Source of the DNA: Verrucomicrobiota bacterium
GTDB lineage: Bacteria; Verrucomicrobiota; Verrucomicrobiia; Limisphaerales; J093
Length of the DNA: 64,000 bases
Assembly: GCA_012517065.1 (NCBI GenBank)
Contig: JAAYVR010000026.1
Coordinates: 2,390 to 66,389 of the forward strand
Reading direction: 5' to 3'
Shown piece by piece: positions 5,453 to 64,000 of this stretch. A program made the position numbers and the translations under genes. The notes beneath the pieces are model-generated. The model did no database searches and was not told the origin of the DNA. It was given only the letters and a program-made list of their open reading frames with translations. Each line of letters begins with the position of its first letter. The stretch's first letter is position 1.

Positions 5453-6289
5453 TTACTGTTGGCCGAACTGGTATGACAAGTACAATGCCACCCCGCGCTG
5501 GCGCGCGTATTCAGGCACGTCACGGCTCGAAACCATGTGCGCAACCAGTATGGGAAATACCTTGCCGCAGACCGCCTTCAGAGGTTCCACCCTGTTGCGA
5601 ATGAAACGGTCCACCTCGTTCTTGGACAATTGCGCCTTGGCTTCCCCGATTATCCAAACCGGCTCACTCCCTCGGGTCCCACGCCCCAAAATGTTGACCT
5701 CCAAATCCCGACCCCTTGCATCCGCGAGATAGTCGCGGCGAAGAGGTTCCGTAAGCTTGACTTGGTGGTCGCGTTCCAAGAGCACCGGCAAAGCCCGATA
5801 TGCCTCGTTTTCCAGAGTGTACCCCACAGTGATTGCCAGGCCGCCGAGTTGCTTGTTCGTGTCGTCCAGCCTTTCTGCGAGCTTTGCCAATGCTGATTCG
5901 GTTCGTTGCTGCGCCGCGGCAAGTTCCCCCAAACGAATCTCTGTACTTTTCTGCGCTTCGCTGAGTTCGTTTAACGACCGAGTAAGTTCCTCGACACGGG
6001 TCTCTGTGCGTTTCTGCGCTTCGGCGAGTTCTCCAAGCCGGATCTCGGTCTGCTTCTGTGCCGCACTGAGTTCTTCGACGCGAGCTTCGGTCCGCTTTTG
6101 TGCCTCGGCCAATTCCTTTTGCGACACTGCGAGCTCGCTAACAACACGTTGCAGGGCCTCGAAATCGGACCTCTTGACCGTGTCCTGAAGGTCCTCATAG
6201 ATCAGGCCCAGCACGGATGCGAGTTTCTGAGCAGGTCTCGGGTCCATGACCTCGCTCAGTTCCTCGTATATGCGCAAGGTGTTGATCAC
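5453..6289 (-). CDS. coiled-coil protein with C-terminal PD-(D/E)xK-like domain (DUF3782-like, function unknown)
   Basis: 278 aa. Repeated ELAEAQKRTExRVEEL units, then RDLEVNILG...IIGEAKAQL. The first codon at 6289 is GTG; an ATG alternative is at 6247. Confidence 0.7.
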   Translation of the reverse strand: MINTLRIYEELSEVMDPRPAQKLASVLGLIYEDLQDTVKRSDFEALQRVVSELAVSQKELAEAQKRTEARVEELSAAQKQTEIRLGELAEAQKRTETRVEELTRSLNELSEAQKSTEIRLGELAAAQQRTESALAKLAERLDDTNKQLGGLAITVGYTLENEAYRALPVLLERDHQVKLTEPLRRDYLADARGRDLEVNILGRGTRGSEPVWIIGEAKAQLSKNEVDRFIRNRVEPLKAVCGKVFPILVAHMVSSRDVPEYARQRGVALYLSYQFGQQ

Positions 6290-6320
6290 AGCTTTACTAT
6301 GCTTGATTCAGCGCGTCCGG

Positions 6321-6619
6321 TCAAGCTGTCGAATCCAGCGCGGCAGCCTCCAGCTTTCGTTGCAACCGGTTCAGGGCTTTCAACCTCTGAATGCAGACCT
6401 GGCGTATTGCGCCCCACGCGGCCAATCGTCGGGTGCCTGTACTTGCGCTGGCCTTGCTGATGCCAAGCAACCGAACAATGTCATCCAATGACAAAGGCGC
6501 CGCTGAAAAAATAGCAACCAATAAATCCGACCCAACGACCGCAGCAGGCCGAGTCGGCGGCACACATTGCCGGCTGTTTCGATGAATTTGAGCCTGCTTC
6601 GAGAGCGAAGGGGGGGCAT
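6321..6619 (-). pseudogene. GbsR/MarR-type winged-HTH regulator interrupted by a 1-nt frameshift
   Basis: Frame 1 (ATG 6619) reads MPPLRSRSRLKFIETAGNVCRRLGLLRSLGRIYWLLFF. Frame 2 continues SAAPLSLDDIVRLLGISKASASTGTRRLAAWGAIRQV. Together they match the GbsR-type N-terminus (FIE..G......GRIyglL....pLSlDdi...LgiSK.s.S...r.L..wGav). The junction is a 6-nt A/T homopolymer at 6506-6511. Confidence 0.6.
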
Positions 6620-6774: not shown

Positions 6775-6988
6775 AATGCCAGCCGCACCCCAAGCGCTTC
6801 GCGCCTGCCAACGCCCACTGCATCCGCGGCAGCGCGTGAGAAACCGTCGGGATCAGCGCGCTCTTCCTTGCGACGGAGTCGCAGGGCATATTGCCCAGCC
6901 CGGCGTGGCTGAAGGTCCGGGTGGTGCAAGAGCCGGGGGCGTTGTCCGTCAGGCGACCTTGGTTCCCGCTGCGCCGGGCTGCGAAATA
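6775..6988 (-). repeat. composite repeat, modules B + A in inverted orientation
   Basis: Reverse complement matches the A-B units at 17586-17830, 34470-34728 and 51715-51962. The long A hairpin (arms at about 6881-6902 and 6966-6988) ends 7 nt from the stop of the last hydrogenase gene. Confidence 0.85.
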
Positions 6989-6994
6989 TGCGGG

Positions 6995-7531
6995 CTAAAC
7001 CTTCTCAGCGTCCTTGTACACGATCTCAATTCCGGTCCCGACAAGTGATTCCGGGTGATAGCGAGGAATTGGTAACCTGCGCTGTTGTAATGTCACCGGA
7101 CACATCTTCTTCTCAACAAGACCCAGCGCAAGAGCAACCCCGTAAAGGATCGCTTCCGGCCGGGGCGGACATCCCGGGATGTAGTAATTAACGGGGATCA
7201 CCTTTTCAACAGGCCCGAGCACGTTGTATGAGTCGTGCCAAATCCCGCCGCCACACGCACACGAACCGATTGCAAACACCAGCTTCGGTTCCGGCATGGC
7301 TTCGTATGCGCGACGCAGTGCCGCTGCGGTGGGCCGCATTGCAGGACCCTGGCAAAGCATAACATCCGCGTGCCGCGGTGAACCCACCAGCTTTATGCCG
7401 AAGCGCTCGGCATCGTAGTAGGGCGTCAGAACGTTGAGGACTTCAATGTCACAACCGTTGCAACCGCCGCTGTTGGCATGGTAAACCCACAGCGATTTGC
7501 GAAACATCTTCCTGCAAAGTTGCTTGATCAT
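6995..7531 (-). CDS. [NiFe]-hydrogenase small subunit, NuoB/HycG-like (group 4 type)
   Basis: Motifs GGCNGCDIE, GSCACGGGIW and PGCPPRPEAI. ATG at 7531 gives an N-terminus parallel to HycG; the track ORF starts at a TTG at 7558. Confidence 0.9.
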   Translation of the reverse strand: MIKQLCRKMFRKSLWVYHANSGGCNGCDIEVLNVLTPYYDAERFGIKLVGSPRHADVMLCQGPAMRPTAAALRRAYEAMPEPKLVFAIGSCACGGGIWHDSYNVLGPVEKVIPVNYYIPGCPPRPEAILYGVALALGLVEKKMCPVTLQQRRLPIPRYHPESLVGTGIEIVYKDAEKV

Positions 7532-9116: not shown

Positions 9117-10814
9117 CTACGAATCCTTGATGTGGCGTCCGCTTTGCGCGCGTTTTGCCATTTCCCTGAGGTCGCGCGGCGTCCATACCTTGACCGCCCC
9201 AGACCTTACGTCCACAGCTTCGATCCGGTCCGTGCACGAAAAGCATGGATCGATGCTCCCCAAAGCAATTGTCATGTCCGCCAGTTGTGCGTCCCGAATC
9301 ATCGAAGGCACACCCTGCAGATTCTGGTAGGTCGGCGCTCTGACCCGCCACCGTCGAGGCCGGTTGTTCTCGCCCGTGATCACGAAATGATGCGATTCAC
9401 CACGTGGGGCTTCGACCGAAGACAGGCCGAACCGCCCGGCCGGGAGATCTTCCTTGATCGGGGTCTGGATCGGACCTGGCTCAAGTCGCGCGAGGCATTG
9501 GCGGATAATGCTTATTGATTCGAATACTTCGTCGGTTCGCACCACCAACCTGCCCCACACATCGGCGCTCTGGGCGGTTATCACTCGAAAATCGACCCTG
9601 TCATACGCCGCGTATGGATGATCGCGCCGGCAATCAATGTCAACGCCCGCTGCGCGCGCAACAGGTCCGATCAACCCCATTTCTTTCACAACACTCGCGT
9701 CAGCAACGCCAACGCCACACGTTCTTCTTTGGATGTTCTTGTCGTTCTTGACCGCCCTGGCCACGTTGTGCCATTCGCTTTCGAGCTTGTCCAAAACTGT
9801 TTTGAGCTCATCACTCAGCTCAGAGGTAATATCCCATCTTACCCCGCCAATCACGCACAAGCCGTAGGTCTTGCGATTGCCACTGATCTTCTCCGCAATC
9901 CACATCACCGGTTCCCGAACTCTGAAGGCCTGCATGAACAGCGTGTCAAACCCAACAATGTGACACGCCAAACCAACCCACAAAAGATGGCTGTGCAGCC
10001 GTTCCAGCTCCAGCATTATGGTGCGAATGTACTCCGCACGGGGCGGCGGACGCAAAGCAACGGCTTCCTCGACCGATTGCGCGTATGCAACGTTGTGCAC
10101 GCAGCCGCATATCCCGCAAATCCGCTCCGCCATGATCGGAATGTCATTGTACCCCAGCACGCTTTCAGCCAGTTTCTCGATCCCCCTGTGCACCATGAAA
10201 CCCCGATACTCGCACCCGCGAACGGTTTCCCCTTCAACGTACAGACGAAAATGTGCCGGCTCATCCAACGTCGGATGAAAAGGCCCAAACGGCACCACAG
10301 TGCAACCTTCCGGAGGATCATCGAAATCGTAGCCAGCCCCGCTCTCGTCACAATCCGGCGCCTCATCCCACTCGACATCCTTCCGCAAAGGATGCAGGCC
10401 TTCCGGCCAACCATCCGGCAAAACTAACCGCTTCGGATACGGATGCCCCACCGCCTCGATCCCAACAAGGTCACGCATTTCGCGTTCGGCCCAATTCGCC
10501 GCCGGCACAACATCGGAAATGCTCTCGATCCGCGGCGAGTCAGCCGGCAGCAGACACATCACGCTCACCAGCAACCGGTCCCGGTCAAACGCAAAGTTGT
10601 GCGCAACCATGAAACAACCCGACCACGGCCGATCGTCGGCCCCAATCGTTATCACGTACCGGGCGTCCAGCTCACGAAACAATGCCCGACACACCTCCTT
10701 CACCGATCTCGGCTCGACAAACACGTAAAGTCGGCGATCGCTCGTCAGGTCGGCGCGAATAATCGCCGCCCCAAACCGCTGCCGCAAAAAACCAAGTTTC
10801 TCTCTCGCCGCCAT
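9117..10814 (-). CDS. [NiFe]-hydrogenase large subunit fused to a NuoC-like domain (HycE-like, group 4)
   Basis: 565 aa. N-terminal NuoC-like part, then NiFe ligand motifs RICGICGCVH and DPCFSCTDR. Confidence 0.95.
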   Translation of the reverse strand: MAAREKLGFLRQRFGAAIIRADLTSDRRLYVFVEPRSVKEVCRALFRELDARYVITIGADDRPWSGCFMVAHNFAFDRDRLLVSVMCLLPADSPRIESISDVVPAANWAEREMRDLVGIEAVGHPYPKRLVLPDGWPEGLHPLRKDVEWDEAPDCDESGAGYDFDDPPEGCTVVPFGPFHPTLDEPAHFRLYVEGETVRGCEYRGFMVHRGIEKLAESVLGYNDIPIMAERICGICGCVHNVAYAQSVEEAVALRPPPRAEYIRTIMLELERLHSHLLWVGLACHIVGFDTLFMQAFRVREPVMWIAEKISGNRKTYGLCVIGGVRWDITSELSDELKTVLDKLESEWHNVARAVKNDKNIQRRTCGVGVADASVVKEMGLIGPVARAAGVDIDCRRDHPYAAYDRVDFRVITAQSADVWGRLVVRTDEVFESISIIRQCLARLEPGPIQTPIKEDLPAGRFGLSSVEAPRGESHHFVITGENNRPRRWRVRAPTYQNLQGVPSMIRDAQLADMTIALGSIDPCFSCTDRIEAVDVRSGAVKVWTPRDLREMAKRAQSGRHIKDS

Positions 10815-17501: not shown

Positions 17502-17585
17502 GCAACTCCTGGAATCTCCCACCGATTCACGACCGAACACTGATTGACTCCCCGGCCGTTGCCCCGGCTTCATTGGCCGGGCGCC

Positions 17586-17953
17586 CTAGCCCGCATATTT
17601 CCCAGCCCGGGGTAGCCGGAACCAAAGTCGCCCAACGGGCAACGCCCCCGGCTCTCGCACCCCCCGGACCTTCAGCCGCGCCGGGCTGGGAAATATGCCC
17701 TGCGACTCCGTCGCCGGGAAGAGCGCGCTGATCAAGCCCCCACTGCACGCGGCGCCGCCGCGGTTGCAGTGGGCGTTGGTAGGCGCGAAGCGCTTGGAGT
17801 GCGGCAGCTTGCTGCCGCTTTGTTTCTTATGCGCGAACAACGTGTCTGGCACTCTATTTACATCTCCACTGATGCATTCGGCGCGCCGGGCACGGCACTC
17901 CCTACCATTGATGAAATCTTGCGCAAGGCAGGGCGGGCGCTCCGCGCACACCG
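17586..17953 (+). repeat. composite repeat, modules A-B-C-K
   Basis: A is a long hairpin (cccgcatatttcccagcccgg ... ccgggctgggaaatatgccc). B contains gcgaagcgcttggagtgcggcagcttgctgccgctttg. C is the 25-nt joint. K is gatgaaatcttgcgcaaggcagggcgggcgctccgc. Each module recurs elsewhere in the window. Confidence 0.9.
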
Positions 17954-18192
17954 CAAACAAAGTGCCTGTCACCCTATTGCCGAGGCTGGCGCCGCAGCCA
18001 GCCACGAAGCTGCAGTTGGTTTGCGAGCTGGCTGATGGACAGCCGAAGGGGTCCGATGAGCAACAAAGTGCCTGTCACCCTATTGCCGAGGCTGGCGCTG
18101 CGGTCGGGCATGAAGCTGTAGTTGGTTTGCGAGCTGGCAGATGGACCGCCGCGGGAGCCTGATGAGCAACAAAGTGCCTGTCACCCTATTGC
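17954..18192 (+). repeat. tandem repeat, about 106-nt unit x 2.3
   Basis: Units start at 17954, 18061 and 18167, each beginning ca(a)acaaagtgcctgtcaccctattgc. The 80-nt remainders of units 1 and 2 are homologous to each other. Confidence 0.9.
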
Positions 18193-18440
18193 ATCATGAA
18201 AAACCCAGTGAGAGGGGCGTGCTCGAAAGGGCACAAAACTCTCAAACGGAACTCTGTGGGTAACCAATCCCACCCGGCAAAGGCTAACCACCAGCCGGAA
18301 GCGAGTTTTGCGTAGTTGTCAGCAATGGCAGCACGAAGCCGCCGACAGCCAGTGTCAAAGCCGTGTGATTGAGCCTCGAAATAAAGGTGTTGCTGGAGCC
18401 TTCGTTGTTAGAGTTGCGGGGGCGGCATCGAAGTCCCCAG

Positions 18441-18505
18441 CCCGGAAATCTCACCGCCTGACCAGACCAACAGACCGAGAGCTTCATTCCGGTGAGATTT
18501 CCGGG
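18441..18505. repeat. hairpin element, family E
   Basis: Perfect 16-nt arms cccggaaatctcaccg / cggtgagatttccggg with a 33-nt loop. Confidence 0.9.
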
Positions 18506-18738
18506 CTAGAAAGCCTGCGAACGGGGCCGCCCGAAGCCGGGGAGTAGGGAAGAGGCAGACACTGTTACGGAGCCGCCTTGAGGAAACACGATGGACACAC
18601 TGAGGTCCGGAGTCGTGTGAACGGAAAAACGGCGGATGGCAACTGCGGCGCGAAGCTGTAACTGGAAGAAGCGTGTGCGAGAAAACAGTTCGCACGGGTC
18701 TGTGGGGGAGCCGATGGAAAACCACCGGCTCTACCCGG

Positions 18739-19010
18739 ATCCGACTCACCCCCGAAGATCGTGCTGTTGTGAGCGCCTTACTTGCTGCCAAAGAAAGAGA
18801 TACAGAGAAACTGAGCAAACTCGCGGCGTGAAAATCTTCGCAAAGATGAGTGATTTTTCAATATAGCAATGCAGCCTGGCGCAGCCGGAGCCAAAGTTGC
18901 CCGATGGGCACTGATCCGGCGCCTGCGCACGCTGACCAGAGCCCTCTGCCACGCCGGGCTGCCAAATATCCGCTGCGACTCCGTCGCAGGCAAAACCACT
19001 CTGATCAAGC
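18739..19010 (+). repeat. composite repeat, 3' part of module D joined to module A
   Basis: Matches 26277-26415 and 34868-35000 (D, including the conserved 30-codon frame and AT-rich tail), then the A body gccggagccaaagttgcc ... ctgcgactccgtcgc. Confidence 0.85.
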
Positions 19011-19116
19011 CACGCACCGGACGTGTCACTGCCAGAGTATGTCCCAACCACATCTAACTCTTCCGCCCAAAGGCGGGACTCGAACAGCCCGGAGCGCGAA
19101 AACGTTGCTGTGATAG

Positions 19117-19413
19117 TCAGGGCTTTCAGCCCTTGGATTGTGGAAGGTGATGTCCAGATGGCCCTTGTCGTGGGGCTTCACCCCACGCTGGTATGGACCG
19201 CGCCCTTGGCGCTTCGATGACCGACCAAGACAACCGCGTTGTGCATGGCAGCGTAGTTGATTGTTTCAGCCATGAACGCCAATCACTGTGTTCGAGACCG
19301 TTGGTGTTCGTGGACCAATGACTCGAGGGCCGAAGGCCCCGCCCCATACCAGCCTGGGCCAGCGGCCCAGGTCAAAGGCGCCAGATCAGTATCAATAAGG
19401 GCTGAAAGCCCGT
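19117..19413. repeat. inverted pair of family J elements (gggctttcagccc type) flanking about 100 bp
   Basis: The left copy (19117-19218) and the reverse complement of 19325-19413 align: gggctttcagccctt ... ctggtatgg ... ccttnggc. Confidence 0.75.
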
Positions 19414-19429
19414 ATTATGCACGTTTACC

Positions 19430-19618
19430 GACGAATCACTGTTCGAGAACGTTCGACGTTCAACGTACAACGCTCAACGTACAACGTTCAGAGGTGTTAC
19501 TGCTCGACGAATGTTCGTTTCAAGGCCGCCTAAAGGCGGGACTCTAACGGCCGCGGGCACGGCAACGCCAAATGCCTGGAAATAACCCGCCGCCGTTAGA
19601 GTTCCGCGTTTAAGCGGA
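19430..19618 (+). repeat. composite repeat, modules G + F
   Basis: G carries tcaacgtacaacgctcaacgtacaacgttcagaggtgttactgctcgacgaatg. F is a nested stem-loop (ccgcctaaaggcgg, gactctaacgg ... ccgttagagtt, ccgcgtttaagcgg). Confidence 0.85.
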
Positions 19619-19639
19619 AACGAGAAGACTGTCTGTCAC

Positions 19640-19890
19640 AGCTCCGGCGCGCCAGGGACGGCGCGCCCTACCGTGGATGAAATCTTGCGCAAGGCATGGC
19701 GGGCGCTCCGCACACACAACAAACAACGTGTCTGTCCCCATATGGTCTCATTGGATCGCGCCGCTGATCCCGATGGTTTTTCACGCGCTGCCGCACATGC
19801 AGTGCGCGTTGGTAAACGCGAAGCGCTTGGAGTGCGGCAGCTTGCTGCCGCTTTGTTTTTGTGCGCAAACAACGTGCCTGCGCCCGTTGC
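19640..19890 (+). repeat. composite repeat, modules K-C-B-C'
   Basis: Same module sequences as at 17736-17980, in a different order. Abuts the 3' end of the EamA-like gene. Confidence 0.85.
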
Positions 19891-25912: not shown

Positions 25913-26500
25913 CGATATGGGGACAGACACGTAGTTTGCGCATCCCCAGCCGGTCAACGTTCAGGCGTCCGCTCTGTGGGATCGAAACCGATCGTACAAT
26001 CCGGGGTCAGATTGATGCGGCCGAGGACGACGCCGCGCCTTGCCGTTCATGAAACCGTGCACGGGTCAGGGCGGGCGCTCGGCGCACACCACAAACAAAG
26101 TGCCTGTCCCCATATCGGCATCCCCACAAACAATGTGCCTGTCCCCATATCGGCACCCATATCGTCAGCCGAGGGGTTCCTCCACAGACTTCAGCAGCCG
26201 CCGATTGGAACAAGGGGCAATCGGCTCGCCATGCCACGATCCTGGAGCAAAACCCAAACAAGGAGCCTGTCACTCTATCCGACTCACCCCCAAAGGCCGT
26301 GCTGTTGTAACCGCCTTATTGGCGGCCAGAGAAGCAGATACGGAGAAACTGACCAAACTGGCAGTCTGAAAATCTTCGCGAATATGAATGACTTTTCAAT
26401 ATGACAATGCAGCCCGACGTAGCCGACAGCCCTCATCAGACGACGTGGGAGCTTGGTCCACTCCCCGTCAGGCAACTTTGGTTCCGGCTATGCCGGGCTA
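25913..26500. repeat. composite repeat field: C (inverted), K, C, C, D, rearranged A
   Basis: 25913-25938 is the only inverted C motif. K-like at 26040-26090, C at 26092-26118 and 26127-26153, D at 26160-26415, A-derived sequence to about 26500. Confidence 0.85.
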
Positions 26501-34469: not shown

Positions 34470-35052
34470 GCACTTGCCTGCGCGGCCTAACCCGGAAATC
34501 TCGCAGCCCGGCGTAGCCGGAACCAAAGTGGCCCCACGGGCACCGCACGGCTCCTGCACCCCTTCGGACCGTCACCCGCGCCGGGCTGCGAAATATCTGC
34601 TGCGACTCCGCCGCTGGGAAAAGCGCGCTGATACCAATGGTTCTTCACGCGCTGCCGCGGATGCAGTGGGCGTTGGTAGGCGCGAAGCGCTTGGAGTGCG
34701 GCAGCTTGCTGCCGCTTTGTTTTTATGCGCAAACAACGTGCCTGTCCCCATATCGGTACCCGAGGGGTTCCTCCACGGACTTCGGCAAGCGCGGATTCGA
34801 ACAAGAGGCAATTTGCGGGCCAGGCCGGAATCAGAGTGCAAAACCCAAACAACGAGCCTGTCACTTTATCCGACTCACCCATAAAGGCCGTACCGTTGTG
34901 ACCGCCTTACTGGCTGCAAGAGAAGCAGATACGGAGAAACTGACCAAGCTGGCAGGTTGAGAATCTTCGCAAATATGAATGATTTTTAAATATAACAATA
35001 CAGCCTGACCACACCAAGAAACCCAAAGCCTCATTCCCTCGAGATTCCCGGG
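34470..35052 (+). repeat. composite repeat, modules A-B-C-D followed by a half E element
   Basis: A 34470-34625, B to 34728, C 34729-34755, D to 35000, E half (inverted) 35001-35052. Fills the whole accC / C_GCAxxG intergenic space. Confidence 0.9.
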
Positions 35053-37733: not shown

Positions 37734-37830
37734 CAAATAACGTGTCTGTCACCATATCGACACAACGCCCAAACAACGTGCCTGTCCCCATATCCGCGCT
37801 CGACAAACAAAGTGTCTGTCACTCTATTTG
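37734..37830 (+). repeat. mini-array of three C motifs (period 34-36 nt)
   Basis: caaataacgtgtctgtcaccatatcga, caaacaacgtgcctgtccccatatccg and caaacaaagtgtctgtcactctatttg. Confidence 0.9.
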
Positions 37831-38878: not shown

Positions 38879-39107
38879 TAAACAGTGTGTCTGTCACCCT
38901 ATTCTGCTTTCAAGCCGGACCAGGCTTGCAGCCCGATTCCCACGGGGCTGCATGGGCAGCTCCGGACCAAGACTCCCAGCGCCCAAACAGCGTGCCTGTC
39001 ACCCTATCCTCAGCACCTTTTCAGTGACGTCGCGGGCTCTGACCCGGGAATCTCACCAGAATGAAACTTTGAGTGTCTTGGTCTGGTCAGGCGGTAAGAT
39101 TTCCGGG
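38879..39107 (+). repeat. two C motifs plus a family E hairpin
   Basis: C at 38879-38904 and 38984-39009. E at 39043-39107 (arms cccgggaatctcacc / cggtaagatttccggg), ending 16 nt from the GH stop. Confidence 0.85.
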
Positions 39108-39123
39108 CGGGGTCTTGACACTT

Positions 39124-41155: not shown

Positions 41156-41298
41156 CTGGGAAACCCGCGCCAAACCGAACAAGTAGTGATATCTTCTACA
41201 GTGTGTCAGTAGTCGCGTTGCCGAAATCGGCTCCGGAGGGGAGCACGGTGTGAGGTCTGGAAACTGAGATTCTCTTGTTTGGGCGCGGGTTTCTTTGG

Positions 41299-41440
41299 CC
41301 CGGAAATCTCACCGGAATGAAGCTTTGGGTGTCTTGGGCTGGTCAAGCGGTGAGATTTCCGGGCTAGCCGCATATTTCCCAGCCCGGCGCAGCCGGAACC
41401 AAAGTCGCCTCACGGGCGGTGACACGGTGCCTGCTCTTCC
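41299..41440 (+). repeat. family E hairpin fused to the left half of module A
   Basis: E 41299-41363 (perfect arms cccggaaatctcaccg / cggtgagatttccggg), followed directly by ctagccgcatatttcccagcccggcgcagccggaaccaaagtcgcc. Confidence 0.9.
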
Positions 41441-41481
41441 GCGCGCCCATAAAGCCATTCGGTTGGCAAAACCGCGACCCG

Positions 41482-41862
41482 GTTGAACGCTGCGAGTTGA
41501 ACGTTGTACGTTGGAAGTTTTCGTAGGTTTATCAGCATGGTCGTCTTCTTGCGAACGTCCAACGTGCAACGCTCAACGTACAACCTTCAGAGGTGTTACT
41601 GCTCGATGAATGCCCGTTTCAAAGCCGCCTAAAGGCGGGACTCTCGCAGCCGTGGGCGCGGCATCGCCCGATGCACGCAACAACCTATCGCCGTCAGAGT
41701 TCCGCGTTTACGCGGAACACAGGCAGTTCACTGAAACAGTGCTCGTGGTCAGGTTCACGAAACTGTTCCGCCTAAAGGCGGGACTCTAACGGTCGTGGGT
41801 GCAGCATCGCCCGAAGCGCAGGACAACCTATCGCCGCCAGAGTCCCGCGTTTACGCGGAACA
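41482..41862 (+). repeat. composite repeat, module G followed by two tandem F stem-loop units
   Basis: G 41482-41622; F 41623-41718 and 41766-41862 (ccgcctaaaggcgg ... ccgcgtttacgcgg in each). Confidence 0.85.
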
Positions 41863-41940
41863 GTGAAAGTGTTCTGGTCCTGATTGTGGTACCCCAGCGC
41901 TCTACACCTCCGCCAATAGGCGGCCTGCCGCGCTCCGAGC

Positions 41941-42159
41941 CAATTACGTGTCAATTACGTGTCTGTCCCCATATGGCCTCATTCGATCTCGCCACTGATC
42001 CCAATGATTTTTCACGGGCTGCCGCGGATGCAGTGGGCGTTGGTAGGCGCGAAGCGCTTGGAGTGCGGCAGCTTACTGCCGCTTTGTTCTTATGCCCAAA
42101 CAACGTGCTTGGAACCAGATCCGCATAACGCCGAAAACAATGTGTCTGTCCCCATATCA
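41941..42159 (+). repeat. composite repeat, modules C-B-C'-C
   Basis: C 41952-41976 (with an 11-nt local duplication at 41941-41951), B 41977-42096, variant C 42097-42123, C 42133-42159. Confidence 0.85.
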
Positions 42160-44756: not shown

Positions 44757-44822
44757 CCCGGAAATCTCACCGGGACGAAAGCATGAGTGAGTCCGAGGGG
44801 GTGGCCGATGAGATTTCCGGGG
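44757..44822 (+). repeat. family E hairpin (diverged loop) starting right after the peptidase stop codon
   Basis: Arms cccggaaatctcaccgg / ccgatgagatttccgggg. The TAG stop at 44754-44756 is the tag of the element's tagcccgg boundary. Confidence 0.85.
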
Positions 44823-44990
44823 CCAGCGAGCCCGCGCCCAAACCAGAGAATCTCAATTCCAAGACCTAACAAAGGCCTGATCACCGTAGCCGATAGCGGC
44901 AAGCAGACTACTTACACACTGTAACCTTCATCATTCGCTTGTGGCTGCGCTGCGCTGTGTCAGTTGCGGCGCATGCATGCTGCAACCGGC

Positions 44991-51714: not shown

Positions 51715-52040
51715 TCCGTAGCCCTCATGTTTCCCAGCCCGGCGAAGCCGGAACCAGAGTCGCCTGACGAGCAACGCCCCCCGGCTCTTGCACACCCCCT
51801 GACCTTCAGTCACGCCGGTTCGGGGAATATGCCCTGCGACTCCATCCCAAGGAAAAGCGCGCTGATACCAATGGTTTCTCACGCGCTGCCGCGGATGCAG
51901 TGGGCGTTGGTTGGCGCGAAGCGCTTGCAGTGCGGCAGCTTGCTGCCGCTTTGTTGTTATGCACAAACAACGTGCCTGGAACCAGATCGGCATGGTGTAG
52001 AAAATAACGTGTCTGTCCCCATATCGGCACCATATCGGCA
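51715..52040 (+). repeat. composite repeat, modules A-B-C'-C
   Basis: A 51715-51865, B to 51962, variant C 51963-51990, C 52000-52027 plus the short duplication caccatatcggca. Confidence 0.9.
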
Positions 52041-59347: not shown

Positions 59348-59420
59348 GGGATGTCCTTTCGGTTTGAGGTTCAACTTTCACGCATCACGTTTCACGCATC
59401 AAGTTTCACTCTTCACGCCT
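59348..59420 (-). repeat. 7-nt periodic GTGAA-rich intergenic leader
   Basis: The minus strand reads GCGTGAA GAGTGAA ACTTGAT GCGTGAA ACGTGAT GCGTGAA AGTTGAA CCTCAAA CCGAAAG GACATCC before the ATG. Confidence 0.8.
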
Positions 59421-60119
59421 TCATGGCGCGCTGTAGATCAGCCACACGCCGCCGAGCATCACGAGGATGCCGCAGACGATTTTCAGCGCAGTGAGGCCCT
59501 TGGATTGCTCGTTCCATTTGAGCCAGCGCTCGACCAGTTCGGTGGATGTGCCCGCGGCCACTATCACACTGCAATGCCCCACGCCGTAGGCCAGTAGCAG
59601 CACGGCGCCGTAAAGGAAATTGGTCGCAGCCAGCTTGAACGTCACCGCCAACATCGGCGCCATGTACGCAAATGTGCACGGCCCAAGCGCGATGCCAAAG
59701 ATCAGTCCCAACATAAACGCCGCCAGCAGGCCCTTGCGCTTCATGCCCACTTGCCCCGGTCCGGACCACGGCATGGGAATCACGCCAACCAGATACAGGC
59801 CTACGGCAAAAAAGATCAGCGCCACGAAGTAGTTTCCGTAGCGGCCCACGTCGCCCATCAAACGCCCCGCCGCGGCCGTGATGATGCCGATGAATGCGAT
59901 GGTCGTCAGGATGCCCACCGCAAAGAGAGCCGATGTCCAGAACGCGCGCTTCGCCGTCACCGGGCCCTGCTCGCTGATGAAACCGACGATGAGCGGGATG
60001 CTGGCGAGATGGCAAGGGCTGAGGATGATGCTCAACACCCCCCAGACCGCCGCCGCGCTCAGCGCCAGCAACGGCGCCCCTTCCACCGCACGACTGAGGT
60101 TGGTGAAGAGTTGTTCCAT
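59421..60119 (-). CDS. CcdA/DsbD-type transmembrane thiol:disulfide electron transporter (possibly the ArsG-like branch)
   Basis: 232 aa, 6 TM. Membrane-embedded Cys motifs LSPCHLASIPL and LGPCTFAYMAP. Confidence 0.85.
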   Translation of the reverse strand: MEQLFTNLSRAVEGAPLLALSAAAVWGVLSIILSPCHLASIPLIVGFISEQGPVTAKRAFWTSALFAVGILTTIAFIGIITAAAGRLMGDVGRYGNYFVALIFFAVGLYLVGVIPMPWSGPGQVGMKRKGLLAAFMLGLIFGIALGPCTFAYMAPMLAVTFKLAATNFLYGAVLLLAYGVGHCSVIVAAGTSTELVERWLKWNEQSKGLTALKIVCGILVMLGGVWLIYSAP

Positions 60120-60865: not shown

Positions 60866-62194
60866 TCACTTGCACTCGCCGAGCTTGCATGCCTTCGCGA
60901 TTTGCTCAGGCGTCAGTTTCATTTTGTCCGCCAGCGCCTGCGCAATCGTGATTTGGCGCCCCGTCATCGCGGGACGGGCGTCCAGCCACTTCCGCAGGTT
61001 GTCCTGGTTGACGAAGAATCCCTGCTTGAAGCAGCCGGCCGAAACCCACTGGCCTTCGGCGTTTTTCGTTTGGCCAAACCAGGCAATGGCCGTCGGGGGG
61101 GCGATAGAGGCAATCTGGCCATCGAGCGTCTTCACCCGTATTGGTTCACCGGTCAGACCGTCATTTGCTTCGACCTCGATATCCTGCTTGAACCGTGCGG
61201 CCACACCGAGCGAGCAATGGGTACAACAGCCGTAGCCTCGTGTGGTCCCGAACTTCACCACGCAGGCGTCTTCGGGATACACCGCGCGGTCGCAGAAAGC
61301 GCACCGCGTGGCCAGTTCTTTGGACCGAAGCACGTCCCAGGCGAGCAGGTTGCCGCCGCTCGACCGCTGTTCATTCGTCGCGGCTTCCTTCTCACCGAAT
61401 GCCTTTATCGTTGGCCGCCCTTTGGCATCCATGCCGTAGATATAGACCGCCGCGGAGGCGGGCACGAGATTACCGCTGACCCAATCCGTTACGCTTACTT
61501 TGGAATCCTCGGTCTTCGGGTCTGCGCCCACAAGGCTCGAGAAGTAAATGAAGTAACAATGGGGGCTGCAGAAAATGCGTTGTTCGCTCTGCCCCTTAAC
61601 CACGGTCCTTGTCTTGGGGTCAACGTCCCCATCGCACATGAAACAGACCTTGTCGCGCGGGCGGGTATCAGGTTTGACAGGTTCCTCGCGAACGACGCCG
61701 GCGGACTGCTTGGCCAGTAAATCCACGCCCAGTTCCTTCCACTTGGCCAGGATGTCTTCCTTGCCAAAAAAGCCCACGTGGCGAAACCGTTCCTTGCCCT
61801 CTGCGTCGTAGAAAATCTGTGTGGGAATCATTTGAATGCCGTAGGCCCGGCCCGCAGCAGGATTCTTCCACACGTCAATGAACTCGACTTCCAGTCGTCC
61901 GGCATACTCGCGCTTCAGCTCTTCCAGGATCGGCGCCATCATCTTGCACGGGATGCACTTGTCCGCACCAAGATCGATCAGCTTCGGCAACTTCGCGGCA
62001 ACTGTCTGGGTGGAAGCCGGCGCTGCTGAAGCGGCCGTGGCGCTGGGGGCAGCCGCCGACTGTGCCGCCGCCGGGGGAGAATCGCCTGCACCGGCTGCAG
62101 ATTTCTTGTGGTTTTGTTTCAGCGCTACCGCGGCGATGACCGCCACCGCCAGCGCGGCGATGATGAGGAGTTTGGCGGATGTTTTCATGCTCAC
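60866..62194 (-). CDS. membrane-anchored thioredoxin fused to two TRASH-type Cys4 modules with NosL-like segments
   Basis: TM anchor; Trx domain with CIPC. CFMC-x21-CSPHC and CAFC-x21-CCTHC both fit the TRASH pattern C-x2-C-x19-22-C-x3-C. C-terminal tail CKLGEC. Confidence 0.8.
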   Translation of the reverse strand: MSMKTSAKLLIIAALAVAVIAAVALKQNHKKSAAGAGDSPPAAAQSAAAPSATAASAAPASTQTVAAKLPKLIDLGADKCIPCKMMAPILEELKREYAGRLEVEFIDVWKNPAAGRAYGIQMIPTQIFYDAEGKERFRHVGFFGKEDILAKWKELGVDLLAKQSAGVVREEPVKPDTRPRDKVCFMCDGDVDPKTRTVVKGQSEQRIFCSPHCYFIYFSSLVGADPKTEDSKVSVTDWVSGNLVPASAAVYIYGMDAKGRPTIKAFGEKEAATNEQRSSGGNLLAWDVLRSKELATRCAFCDRAVYPEDACVVKFGTTRGYGCCTHCSLGVAARFKQDIEVEANDGLTGEPIRVKTLDGQIASIAPPTAIAWFGQTKNAEGQWVSAGCFKQGFFVNQDNLRKWLDARPAMTGRQITIAQALADKMKLTPEQIAKACKLGECK

Positions 62195-62249: not shown

Positions 62250-62753
62250 TCATTCTGAACCGGCCCGGCAGCAGCAGCCTCCAGCAGGGGACGGTGTCAT
62301 GCCACCTTTTGCTTGGTGGACGAGCCGCTGAACATTGCCCAAACAGCAAGACCCTTGTGGGTTGGTACGCTCGCATGCATCCAGCCCTTGAGAGCACTTG
62401 GACTTGATGTCTTGCAGGATGCTGGAAGAGCCTGTTTCGCGCACCTCGCTCTGAATCGCTCGCACTGTGTGCCCGAAGCAGTAGCAAACCAACCGATCCG
62501 GGTTGGTGCTCTTTTGGAAAACCTCGACGCGCACTTCATTCAAACGCACGAGGTCGCTCGACCCCGGCTGGTAGTAAACGACCTCGCACTCCGGGCTTTG
62601 GCAGAACAAAAAGCCGGGCTTTGAAGGCAGACGGCTGCTTACTTCTGGCACGAGCATGGCTGACACTGTTGTTGGAGAAACAGGCCTGCCTCGCTGGCCA
62701 CAGCTTGGGCACCTGTCGTCAATGGCCCTTGAACAGCACGATGTGAGGTTCAC
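62250..62753 (-). CDS. CopZ-N-terminal-domain-like metallochaperone (Zn-ribbon + BFD-like [2Fe-2S] motif) with poly-Cys tail
   Basis: CCSRAIDDRCPSCG, FCQSPECEVVYY, VCYCFGHT...CERTNPQGSCC and the tail GGCCCRAG. Confidence 0.65.
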   Translation of the reverse strand: MNLTSCCSRAIDDRCPSCGQRGRPVSPTTVSAMLVPEVSSRLPSKPGFLFCQSPECEVVYYQPGSSDLVRLNEVRVEVFQKSTNPDRLVCYCFGHTVRAIQSEVRETGSSSILQDIKSKCSQGLDACERTNPQGSCCLGNVQRLVHQAKGGMTPSPAGGCCCRAGSE

Positions 62754-63526
62754 GGCTTGATCTTCTGGTAAATGGCCGGCAGGCGGGTGCGATACAGCTC
62801 ACTCACCTGCGCCTCCATCTCGGCCAATGGTTTCACCGGGATCAGGTCCATCACCTCTGACGGGCTCAGACCCGACTCGAGCAACGTGCGCGTGCCGCCG
62901 CAAACCATGCGTTTCATTGCCGGCACAATCTCGGCGTCCGTCAAACCAAAACCCGCAGCCACCTCGCGCAAGGTCTGCAATTGAAACCACAGGTACGTCG
63001 GCCCCATCCCAGACAAGATTGCGTATGCCTCGAGCTTTTCCTCGGCCACTTCCGGACACTCACCCAATGGCCCGAGCAATGATTTGACTTCAGCACGATC
63101 ACCGGCGCTCAACGCAGAACCTAACACCGTGGGATTGTAACCCTGGCCGATAATCGATGGCGCGTTTGGTATCACACGGGCGATCCGTGCAAATCCCCCA
63201 AGGATTTCTGTCAGCTTCGAGACCGTAAACTTTGGCGCCAACGACACAAGAATTGCATCGGGTTTGAGATTGGCTTTCACGCCGCCGCAGACCTCGACCA
63301 TCACGGGCGGGTGAACTGCCAGGAATACAATGTCCTGGGCTGCCACCGCCGAGCTCGAGGCCCCAACCTCGATGTTCGGGAACCTGTCCTTCAACTTCGC
63401 AAGCGCTTCTTGATTACAGTCGCAAACCGTCACTCTGGCTGGCATTGCGTTTGCGCGTTTCCAGCCCTCGAGAAAAATGCGGGTCACCCGCCCGCCGCCA
63501 ATGAACCCGATACTTTTGTGGTGCAT
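62750..63526 (-). CDS. pyrroline-5-carboxylate reductase-family NAD(P)H oxidoreductase
   Basis: 258 aa. IGFIGGGRVTRIF dinucleotide fold and a ProC-like C-terminal dimerisation domain. Overlaps the next gene by 4 nt. Confidence 0.8.
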   Translation of the reverse strand: MHHKSIGFIGGGRVTRIFLEGWKRANAMPARVTVCDCNQEALAKLKDRFPNIEVGASSSAVAAQDIVFLAVHPPVMVEVCGGVKANLKPDAILVSLAPKFTVSKLTEILGGFARIARVIPNAPSIIGQGYNPTVLGSALSAGDRAEVKSLLGPLGECPEVAEEKLEAYAILSGMGPTYLWFQLQTLREVAAGFGLTDAEIVPAMKRMVCGGTRTLLESGLSPSEVMDLIPVKPLAEMEAQVSELYRTRLPAIYQKIKP

Positions 63527-63619
63527 TTGTCCCTCCAGAGTCTGATTGTTTACTCTTTACCTCACACGTCTCACGTCTCCCGAATCACGTATTACGCATC
63601 ACTTTTCACGTCTCGCGTC
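63527..63619 (-). repeat. 7-nt periodic ACGTGA-rich intergenic leader
   Basis: The minus strand reads GACGCGA GACGTGA AAAGTGA TGCGTAA TACGTGA TTCGGGA GACGTGA GACGTGT GAGGTAA AGAGTAA, then ...GGAGGGACAA ATG. Confidence 0.8.
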
Positions 63620-63880
63620 TCAGCTACTCTTCTCCCCTTCAGCCGCCTGACTCAACATTGTCTTGAGTTCGGCTACGCTCGGCACTTTGCCGACCACTTT
63701 TATTGTCCCGTTGATTGCGAGCGCCGGCGTCATCATTACGCCGAGGGCCATGATCTGCTGGAGATCCGTGACCTTGTTGAGTTCATATTGCAGACCGAGC
63801 TCTTTTGCAGCCTGTTCAGCAAACTGCGCCAGCGTCCTGCACCGCGCGCATCCAGGTCCAATCACAAGCAAACTAATCAT
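63620..63880 (-). CDS. small thioredoxin-fold protein (redox-active disulfide protein, TM0996/MTH895-like)
   Basis: 86 aa. MISLLVIGPGCARC CxxC at the N-terminus and TPALAINGTIKVVGKVPS. Confidence 0.85.
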   Translation of the reverse strand: MISLLVIGPGCARCRTLAQFAEQAAKELGLQYELNKVTDLQQIMALGVMMTPALAINGTIKVVGKVPSVAELKTMLSQAAEGEKSS

Positions 63881-63952
63881 ACGCTTTCTCCTTTCACGCT
63901 CTCCATTTCATTGTTCACGTTTTACTTATCACGTTTCACGTTTCACGTTTCA
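63881..63952 (-). repeat. heptanucleotide tandem repeat (TGAAACG)n forming the whole leader of the thioredoxin-like gene
   Basis: The minus strand, from the stop codon of the upstream gene, reads TGAAACG TGAAACG TGAAACG TGATAAG TAAAACG TGAACAA TGAAATG GAGAGCG TGAAAGG AGAAAGC GT-ATG. Confidence 0.9.
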
Positions 63953-64000
63953 CTTCACCGCACCATATACCATGCCCGTGATCGTCGCCATGACGACGGT
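63950..64000 (-). CDS. 3' end of a membrane protein gene (permease-like; partial)
   Basis: The open frame reads ...TVVMATITGMVYGAVK-TGA. Hydrophobic C-terminus. Small thioredoxin-fold genes of this type usually sit beside a DUF318/ArsP-like permease (from memory). Confidence 0.4.
   Translation of the reverse strand, partial: TVVMATITGMVYGAVK

Follow-up and report, generated by a model that had tools for sequence, protein, structure and literature searches.

A TGAAACG heptanucleotide array, probably born of slippage, in the intercistronic spacer of a verrucomicrobial operon

Why should the space between the stop codon of a permease gene and the start codon of a thioredoxin-like gene be filled with copies of a seven-nucleotide unit? 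The tract that raises this question lies near one end of a 64,000-nucleotide stretch of verrucomicrobial DNA, all of which was analysed and which we call the window. On the minus strand it runs for 72 nt, from 63952 to 63881, and reads TGAAACG three times, then TGATAAG, TAAAACG, TGAACAA, TGAAATG, GAGAGCG, TGAAAGG, AGAAAGC and GT, with an ATG following at 63880. The initial annotation, made from the letters alone, had seen about ten 7-nt units on the minus strand, and the sequence, TRF and a comparison of lag-7 identity with a Markov null all bear this out. Ten units occupy 63952..63883 and match TGAAACG at 55 of 70 positions. The description as a TGAAACG tract holds for this ten-unit array, but perfection is limited to the first three units (63932..63952); the other seven (63883..63931) keep the register and match the unit at 5, 6, 4, 6, 3, 6 and 4 of 7 positions. 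TRF reports a period-7 array at 63914-63953 with 5.7 copies and a score of 59, and the best 42-nt window has a lag-7 self-identity of 0.76, against a maximum of 0.67 when the window was simulated 100 times with a first-order Markov model and periods 4-15 were scored. By both measures the tract is made of head-to-tail 7-nt units, in at least three copies, above chance. Seven is the sole enriched short period in the window, and within the 64 kb only period 7 and its double, 14, attain a self-identity of 0.70. The purine content of the tract is 75%.

Both ends of the tract coincide with elements of gene expression. An ArsP_1 (PF03773) permease gene runs off the edge of the window, its 3' end occupying 63950..64000 on the minus strand, and the whole gene can be followed in six strain-level copies of the locus in public assemblies (L181-L186), which have an identical Trx protein and carry independent gene calls. 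There it encodes 435-447 aa and ends 69 nt before the Trx start, and the TGA at 63950-63952, the first three letters of the array, is its stop, as had been read initially. Also as first read, the last units hold a Shine-Dalgarno sequence: AAGGAG at 63888..63893 (minus strand), read from the sequence, spans units 9 and 10 and is normally placed, 7 nt 5' of the ATG of an 86-aa Thioredoxin_3 (PF13192) gene at 63620..63880 (minus strand; Pfam match and gene call).

The term 5' leader, used in the initial annotation, does not suit a sequence in this position. The operon begins with an HTH_5 ArsR-type regulator and continues with the ArsP_1 permease, the tract (69 nt), Thioredoxin_3, a second array (93 or 99 nt), F420_oxidored, zf_CopZ, a Thioredoxin-NosL-MerB fusion, a protein without a Pfam match, DsbD_TM, a third array, FMN_red, DUF6951, a second protein without a Pfam match and a 915-aa protein with faint multihaem-cytochrome matches. 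A sigma70-like promoter candidate, TTGACA-17-TAACTT, lies directly 5' of arsR, two genes before the Trx gene. Since the operon promoter is upstream of arsR, the tract is an intercistronic spacer within the operon and not a promoter-proximal leader. A single metatranscriptome contig (X12) spans 63660-63987 without a difference, which fits read-through from permease to Trx, though carry-over of DNA into the library is possible. As a thiol/metal(loid) redox gene set, the combination of ArsR, ArsP_1, Trx_3, zf_CopZ, DsbD_TM and FMN_red with the 915-aa protein is unusual, and the Thioredoxin, NosL and MerB (alkylmercury lyase) domains are joined in one protein of 442 aa at 60866-62194 (minus strand).

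A run of short repeated RNA motifs before a gene recalls the TRAP-bound trp leader of Bacillus, and a TRAP-like attenuator had been among the first suggestions for the tract. TRAP sites comprise 9-11 (G/U)AG triplets, 2-3 nt apart, which overlap an antiterminator and are conserved with the regulon. The tract differs in having a period of 7, with two GAG and no UAG, in lacking terminator and antiterminator hairpins, and in not being conserved with its gene pair. A search of the whole window with Rfam 15 gave no match in the tract at gathering score, and at E <= 1 the one match in 63400-64000 was to a viral pseudoknot, off the tract and ascribed to chance. Predicted folding of the sense RNA does not surpass that of shuffled sequences (z = -0.85). 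A promoter and terminator scan of the tract found no terminator or antiterminator and one weak promoter-like match, which overlaps the start codon, and an internal promoter or attenuator was rejected on this result. A conserved hairpin formed by palindromic ACGT pairing between units was likewise rejected, since the base before CGTGA varies between arrays.

Orthologous loci speak to the same question. We parsed 43 ArsP-to-Trx junctions and read three of them by eye. About 31 have a spacer of 19-43 nt without a repeat, typically TAACCTCAAACCAAAGGNATNNANTCATG and mostly with a TAA stop; among these are L121, L124 and L126, the nearest relatives when ranked by Trx identity. The remaining junctions, about 12, have heptamer spacers of 64-197 nt with 3-23 units of differing sequence, for example 23 units of GTGAGGC/GTGATTC in L123, TGATGCG in L135 and, in L146, TGAAACG units that give way to GGAAATT. 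In all 12 the permease stop is the TGA of the first unit. Since presence, length and unit all vary among orthologues, the array is not conserved with the gene pair, and its absence from about 31 of 43 junctions contradicts a dedicated regulator of the kind first imagined. The TRAP-like attenuator lacks support on the same count, with the array missing even from the closest relatives and its units differing where it is present, and on others: such arrays adjoin unrelated genes in both orientations, there is no terminator, and the fold is unremarkable. The tract is not a locus-specific sensor or attenuator.

Other arrays carry traces of how such repeats arise. The sister array, 260 nt downstream at 63562..63622 (minus strand; TRF 63565-63622), has units GAGACGT, GAAAAGT, GATGCGT and similar. 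It begins within the TGA stop of the Trx gene and takes up the greater part of the 93-nt spacer ahead of the F420_oxidored (pyrroline-5-carboxylate-reductase-like) gene at 62750..63526 (minus strand; Pfam match and gene call). It exists in two alleles that differ by one additional GAAACGT unit, one missing nucleotide and three SNPs, and all indels between the window and L181 or L182 (7.6-8.9 kb aligned, 99.0-99.5% identity) fall within it. L123, from a related MAG (JABTUJ01), has arrays of 20-28 units at three junctions within 5 kb, at 5799-5959, 6257-6396 and 10563-10758; they include a 14-nt super-unit present ten times with 98% identity, which suggests that expansion was very recent. Elsewhere in the window, TRF finds period-7 arrays with the unit AACGTTC/AACGTAC at 19448..19490 (plus strand), where the array makes up the 5' portion of a dispersed non-coding repeat module, and at 41554..41584 (plus strand); these and a third at ~569 are paralogous copies of one module, with differing unit numbers. 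The unit gain in the sister array, the super-unit and the unit numbers of the paralogues are what slippage or unequal exchange in the DNA itself leaves behind.

The tract itself is quieter. Its length is identical in at least ten independent assemblies (the window, L181-L186, the DNA contigs X6, X11 and X16, and the RNA contig X12), a comparison of assembled contigs, which hide minor variants, and one SNP falls within it, in L181 and X5. With three perfect units left, it looks like an old array that has mostly ceased changing. Slipped-strand copy-number variation, also suggested at the outset, therefore describes the class, in view of the unit indel in the sister array and the 3-23 units of the orthologues, but not this tract, which has one length in ten or more assemblies. 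The same evidence bears on the idea of a contingency (phase-variable) locus, in which frequent changes in unit number would switch or grade expression of the thioredoxin-like gene. The whole-unit indel between strains and the wide range of unit numbers among orthologues are what such a locus might display, but the single tract length in the window and in the L181-L186, X6, X11, X16 and X12 contigs (again, with minor variants hidden), the low slippage potential of only three perfect units, and a position outside any ORF or promoter spacer, where unit changes can shift neither a reading frame nor -35/-10 spacing, make it very unlikely.

We consider it probable, without great certainty, that the tract is a slippage-born heptanucleotide repeat of a kind that lives outside coding DNA, and that it here forms an intercistronic spacer that supplies a stop codon and carries a Shine-Dalgarno sequence. 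Replication slippage or unequal exchange, acting in the short stretch behind the permease stop, would have created the array and extended it; turnover would then have ceased, the distal units would have decayed by point mutation, and the array would by now be fixed in the species-level lineage. The tract is probably transcribed with its neighbours as a spacer, and any effects on expression may be generic ones: it would supply the stop codon of the upstream gene and close all three frames, keep the cistrons 69 nt apart with purine-rich RNA that lacks significant predicted structure, and bear in its last units the Shine-Dalgarno sequence of the thioredoxin-like gene.

How far does the unit extend beyond this locus? 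The window has three arrays of the CGTGA family, all in the ArsR-headed operon; the third, at 59376..59423 (minus strand; TRF 59376-59417), is at the junction of DsbD_TM (stop at 59421-59423) and FMN_red. Both further operon arrays lie on the strand of the tract and start at or adjoining the upstream TGA stop. We assembled a 587 kb set from the window and 51 loci fetched via the Trx protein, almost all verrucomicrobial, and analysed it with TRF and a phased 5-mer count. Phased 5-mers form 312 runs in it with a spacing of 7, whereas periods 6 and 8-11 yield 20-46. CGTGA heads the recurring cores with 21 runs, ahead of GCGTG with 9, and two variable bases complete the unit, giving a family TGANNCG of which TGAAACG, TGATGCG, TGAGGCG, TGATTCG and TGAGACG were seen. 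One count assigns about 20 arrays to it, another 34 in the 587 kb. A search of relatives for other such tracts had been proposed along with the original observation, and these CGTGA-family arrays, with unrelated flanking genes, are what it yields. At least ten unrelated heptamer units, such as GATGCCG, ATCCCGA, CTTCAGC and ATAGCCA, are also arrayed in the same clade.

In a collection with one genome per species (596 Gb, in which a given 21-mer is expected by chance about 0.3 times), exact (GTGAAAC)3 occurs at at least 120 loci. About half of the hosts among the matches listed are Chloroflexota; the others include Verrucomicrobiota, Nitrospirota, Gemmatimonadota and one Desulfococcaceae genome. 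The sequence is nonetheless not unique in being so widespread, and that notion was rejected: a composition-matched control, (TGACAGA)3, is also found at at least 120 loci, its listed matches being mainly in Bacteroidota, Kitasatospora/Streptomyces and Desulfobacterales. The control being equally widespread but in other phyla, the heptamer period is general and the favoured unit lineage-dependent. The TGANNCG family, with its CGTGA core, is common in Verrucomicrobiota and Chloroflexota.

Three further observations concern the distribution of the unit. Many (GTGAAAC)n hosts among the matches listed are filamentous (Anaerolineae, Chloroflexia and Ca. Leptofilum), recalling the STRR and TAACTGA repeats discussed below, whose hosts are filamentous too, though this could be a sampling effect. 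In a wastewater metagenome run (X1), more than 100 other contigs match 63914-63953, with a summed depth of ~9,900 against 6 for the flanks, so the unit is very abundant in activated-sludge communities, probably for the most part in Chloroflexota. Closely spaced inverted CGTGAAA pairs are frequent, as in L133 (6236-6277 on the plus strand with 6283-6303 on the minus strand) and in L003, L006, L050, L057 and L068; such pairs would fold into long imperfect hairpins, whether as RNA or as single-stranded DNA, with a possible role in bidirectional termination or in promoting slippage.

The position of arrays relative to genes was examined with a codon-usage gene caller. In a check on L181 this caller placed no gene falsely or on the wrong strand, overlooked one gene and cut several short at the start. 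By its calls the arrays are mainly extragenic (the mean fraction within called genes is 0.18-0.20), and the distance from the 3' end of an array to the next start codon is typically 6-54 nt, with a median of 23 nt in the verrucomicrobial set. Gene pairs that flank arrays are convergent in 23 cases and divergent in 7. Between co-directional genes at the Trx-operon loci the ratio of sense to antisense arrays is 22:7, a count from the codon-usage caller whose cases are non-independent. In the diverse (GTGAAAC)3 set the matches listed comprise 37 sense and 55 antisense arrays, and at ten independent verrucomicrobial loci orientation is mixed. A fixed strand relative to transcription was rejected on the last two results. 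Among the matches listed, array neighbours have no shared function: their 148 proteins contain 266 Pfam families, each present in at most four.

The stop codons of the arrays deserve scrutiny in this light. All three operon arrays have stops in all three sense frames, and their antisense strands are open in all three. The tract starts in a stop codon because its unit contains TGA, and upstream ORFs in the diverse set, among the matches listed, end in unit 1, 2 or 3 in 10, 8 and 11 cases, which is the expectation for arrays that abut or invade ORF ends at random phase, a constraint that MacGregor set out for TAACTGA (PMC4679880). The initial proposal of frame-independent stops was right about the property, as all sense frames are stopped and the first TGA is used; a selected function does not follow from it, and antisense arrays lack stops. 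A selected barrier that insulates the cistrons from read-through or frameshifted translation would account for the closure of every sense frame in the three operon arrays, and for the use of the first TGA by all array-bearing orthologues where repeat-free spacers mostly have TAA. The property is, however, automatic for any heptamer that contains TGA; antisense arrays, which stop no frame, are no rarer elsewhere (matches listed), the ORF ends are spread over the units as random invasion predicts, and arrays reach 28 units where three would suffice. Selection for such a barrier strikes us as very improbable indeed.

Pure random-seed slippage does not explain why a CGTGA core with two free positions dominates at many loci and in several phyla. 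This dominance, together with the 22:7 sense bias, the placement 6-54 nt before start codons and the constant tract length, would also fit a selected role. One candidate is that the arrays are multivalent mRNA sites for a protein that binds single-stranded RNA (S1, Csp, a CsrA-like protein or an unknown oligomer) and reads CGUGA every 7 nt. Binding would tune translation of the downstream cistron, a precedent being the hypothesis that MacGregor put forward for TAACTGA repeats (PMC4679880). The retention of five positions and freedom of two across loci and phyla, array ends near start codons (at a median of 23 nt for the verrucomicrobial loci), the sense bias in the operon family and a transcribed tract without significant predicted structure all speak for such a protein. 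Yet beyond the operon antisense arrays are at least as frequent as sense ones (55 against 37 among the listed matches, and mixed at verrucomicrobial loci), most orthologues have no array, unit number spans 3 to 28, unrelated heptamer units make similar arrays in the same clade, and the neighbouring genes have no functional theme. We regard this explanation as unlikely, but the unexplained core, the placement between stop and start and the local sense bias keep the idea of an mRNA-reading protein alive.

Indifference to orientation would come naturally to a site in double-stranded DNA, whether for a nucleoid-associated or repair protein (Chi-like or architectural) or as a recombination signal, with every third unit (21 bp, two helical turns) on the same face of the helix. 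The frequency of inverted pairs, L133 included, and the conserved core agree with this, but the arrays are excluded from coding DNA, as a pure DNA signal need not be, and an associated gene was not found; such a site is very improbable. A broader conjecture, distinctly unlikely in our estimate, is that CGTGA+2 arrays are the multivalent target of a widespread oligomeric nucleic-acid-binding factor, or the product of a dedicated repeat-adding activity. If it were true, the arrays of the operon family would work as intercistronic rheostats tuned by length, and this would account for the conserved core, for a position that runs from stop codon to Shine-Dalgarno sequence, and for the sense bias.

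Heptamer arrays of this type have relatives among described repeats. The first to become known, around 1990, were the STRR sequences, and the unit of STRR1 is CCCCAGT. The STRR heptanucleotide repeats of heterocystous cyanobacteria (Calothrix/Nostoc), as cited in PMC4692102, resemble the arrays described here in that several heptamer families occur per lineage, in intergenic positions that include intra-operon ones, and are co-transcribed; they differ in unit and in phylum, and our tract is short and mostly decayed. Heptamers are also reported to be the most abundant of the long simple sequence repeats (LSSRs) in many prokaryotes, and polymerase slippage was proposed as the cause of LSSRs, with 7 nt suggested to match the contact length of the polymerase (Mrazek, Guo and Shah 2007, as relayed in PMC4679880 and PMC4692102). 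As they are portrayed in those two accounts, LSSRs share with our arrays the tandem 7-nt unit, a mostly intergenic location, over-representation, scatter and variable copy number, and the differences are the TGANNCG unit and its hosts, Verrucomicrobiota, Chloroflexota, Nitrospirota and others.

TAACTGA direct repeats, reported from marine Beggiatoaceae, some Cyanobacteria and Bacteroidetes (MacGregor 2015, PMC4679880), come close in several respects. They have stops in all forward frames, so that overlap with ORF ends is at most ~2.5 units; they lie just 5' of start codons without predicted RNA structure; and their neighbours have no functional theme, with a patchy distribution across phyla. 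TAACTGA sets, however, mostly comprise 2-6 perfect copies of one invariant unit, whereas here a core is kept, two positions vary and relatives reach 28 units. The GGGAATC/GGGGAYT arrays of Xanthomonas and Nostoc (PMC4692102) are likewise intergenic, occupy shared junctions across species and vary in length and sequence, but they are G-rich and quadruplex-forming, and our unit has neither G-runs nor predicted structure. Heptanucleotide elements have also been reported from Geobacter metallireducens (PMC2700814). The tract unit, TGAAACG/TGANNCG, is not that of STRR1-3 or TAACTGA, and a literature search did not find the CGTGANN family, or heptamer arrays in Verrucomicrobiota, described.

The tract is a heptanucleotide intergenic array of the LSSR/STRR-like class, and it adds a documented unit family to phyla for which that search found none. 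For annotation, the tract ought not to be taken for a specific riboregulator. Across species a single operon junction holds anything from 0 to 23 units; together with the one-unit strain polymorphism, this forms a natural comparison series that could serve to test the effect of an array on translation of the downstream cistron.

The non-coding repeats that share the window with the operon have features of their own. In one dispersed module the AACGTNC heptamer array comes first and is followed by a conserved CAGAGGTGTTACTGCTCGAYGAATG..GCCGCCTAAAGGCGGGACTCT. Dispersed non-coding modules with a mutual identity of 75-93% form a mosaic at 569-710, 6782-6997, 17581-19880, 26029-26425, 34482-35009, 37734-37820, 39037-39116, 41197-42158, 44805-44923 and 51716-52025. 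Credible ORFs are missing from two stretches, ~17.4-19.9 kb and ~40.6-42.5 kb. The first of these, ORF-poor and rich in repeats, holds an Rfam match to group-II-D1D4-6 introns at 18264-18451 (plus strand; 66 bits, above the gathering score), with no intron-encoded reverse transcriptase ORF noticed adjoining it, and a tandem repeat of period 106 at 17956-18192, with 2.2 copies at 89% identity.
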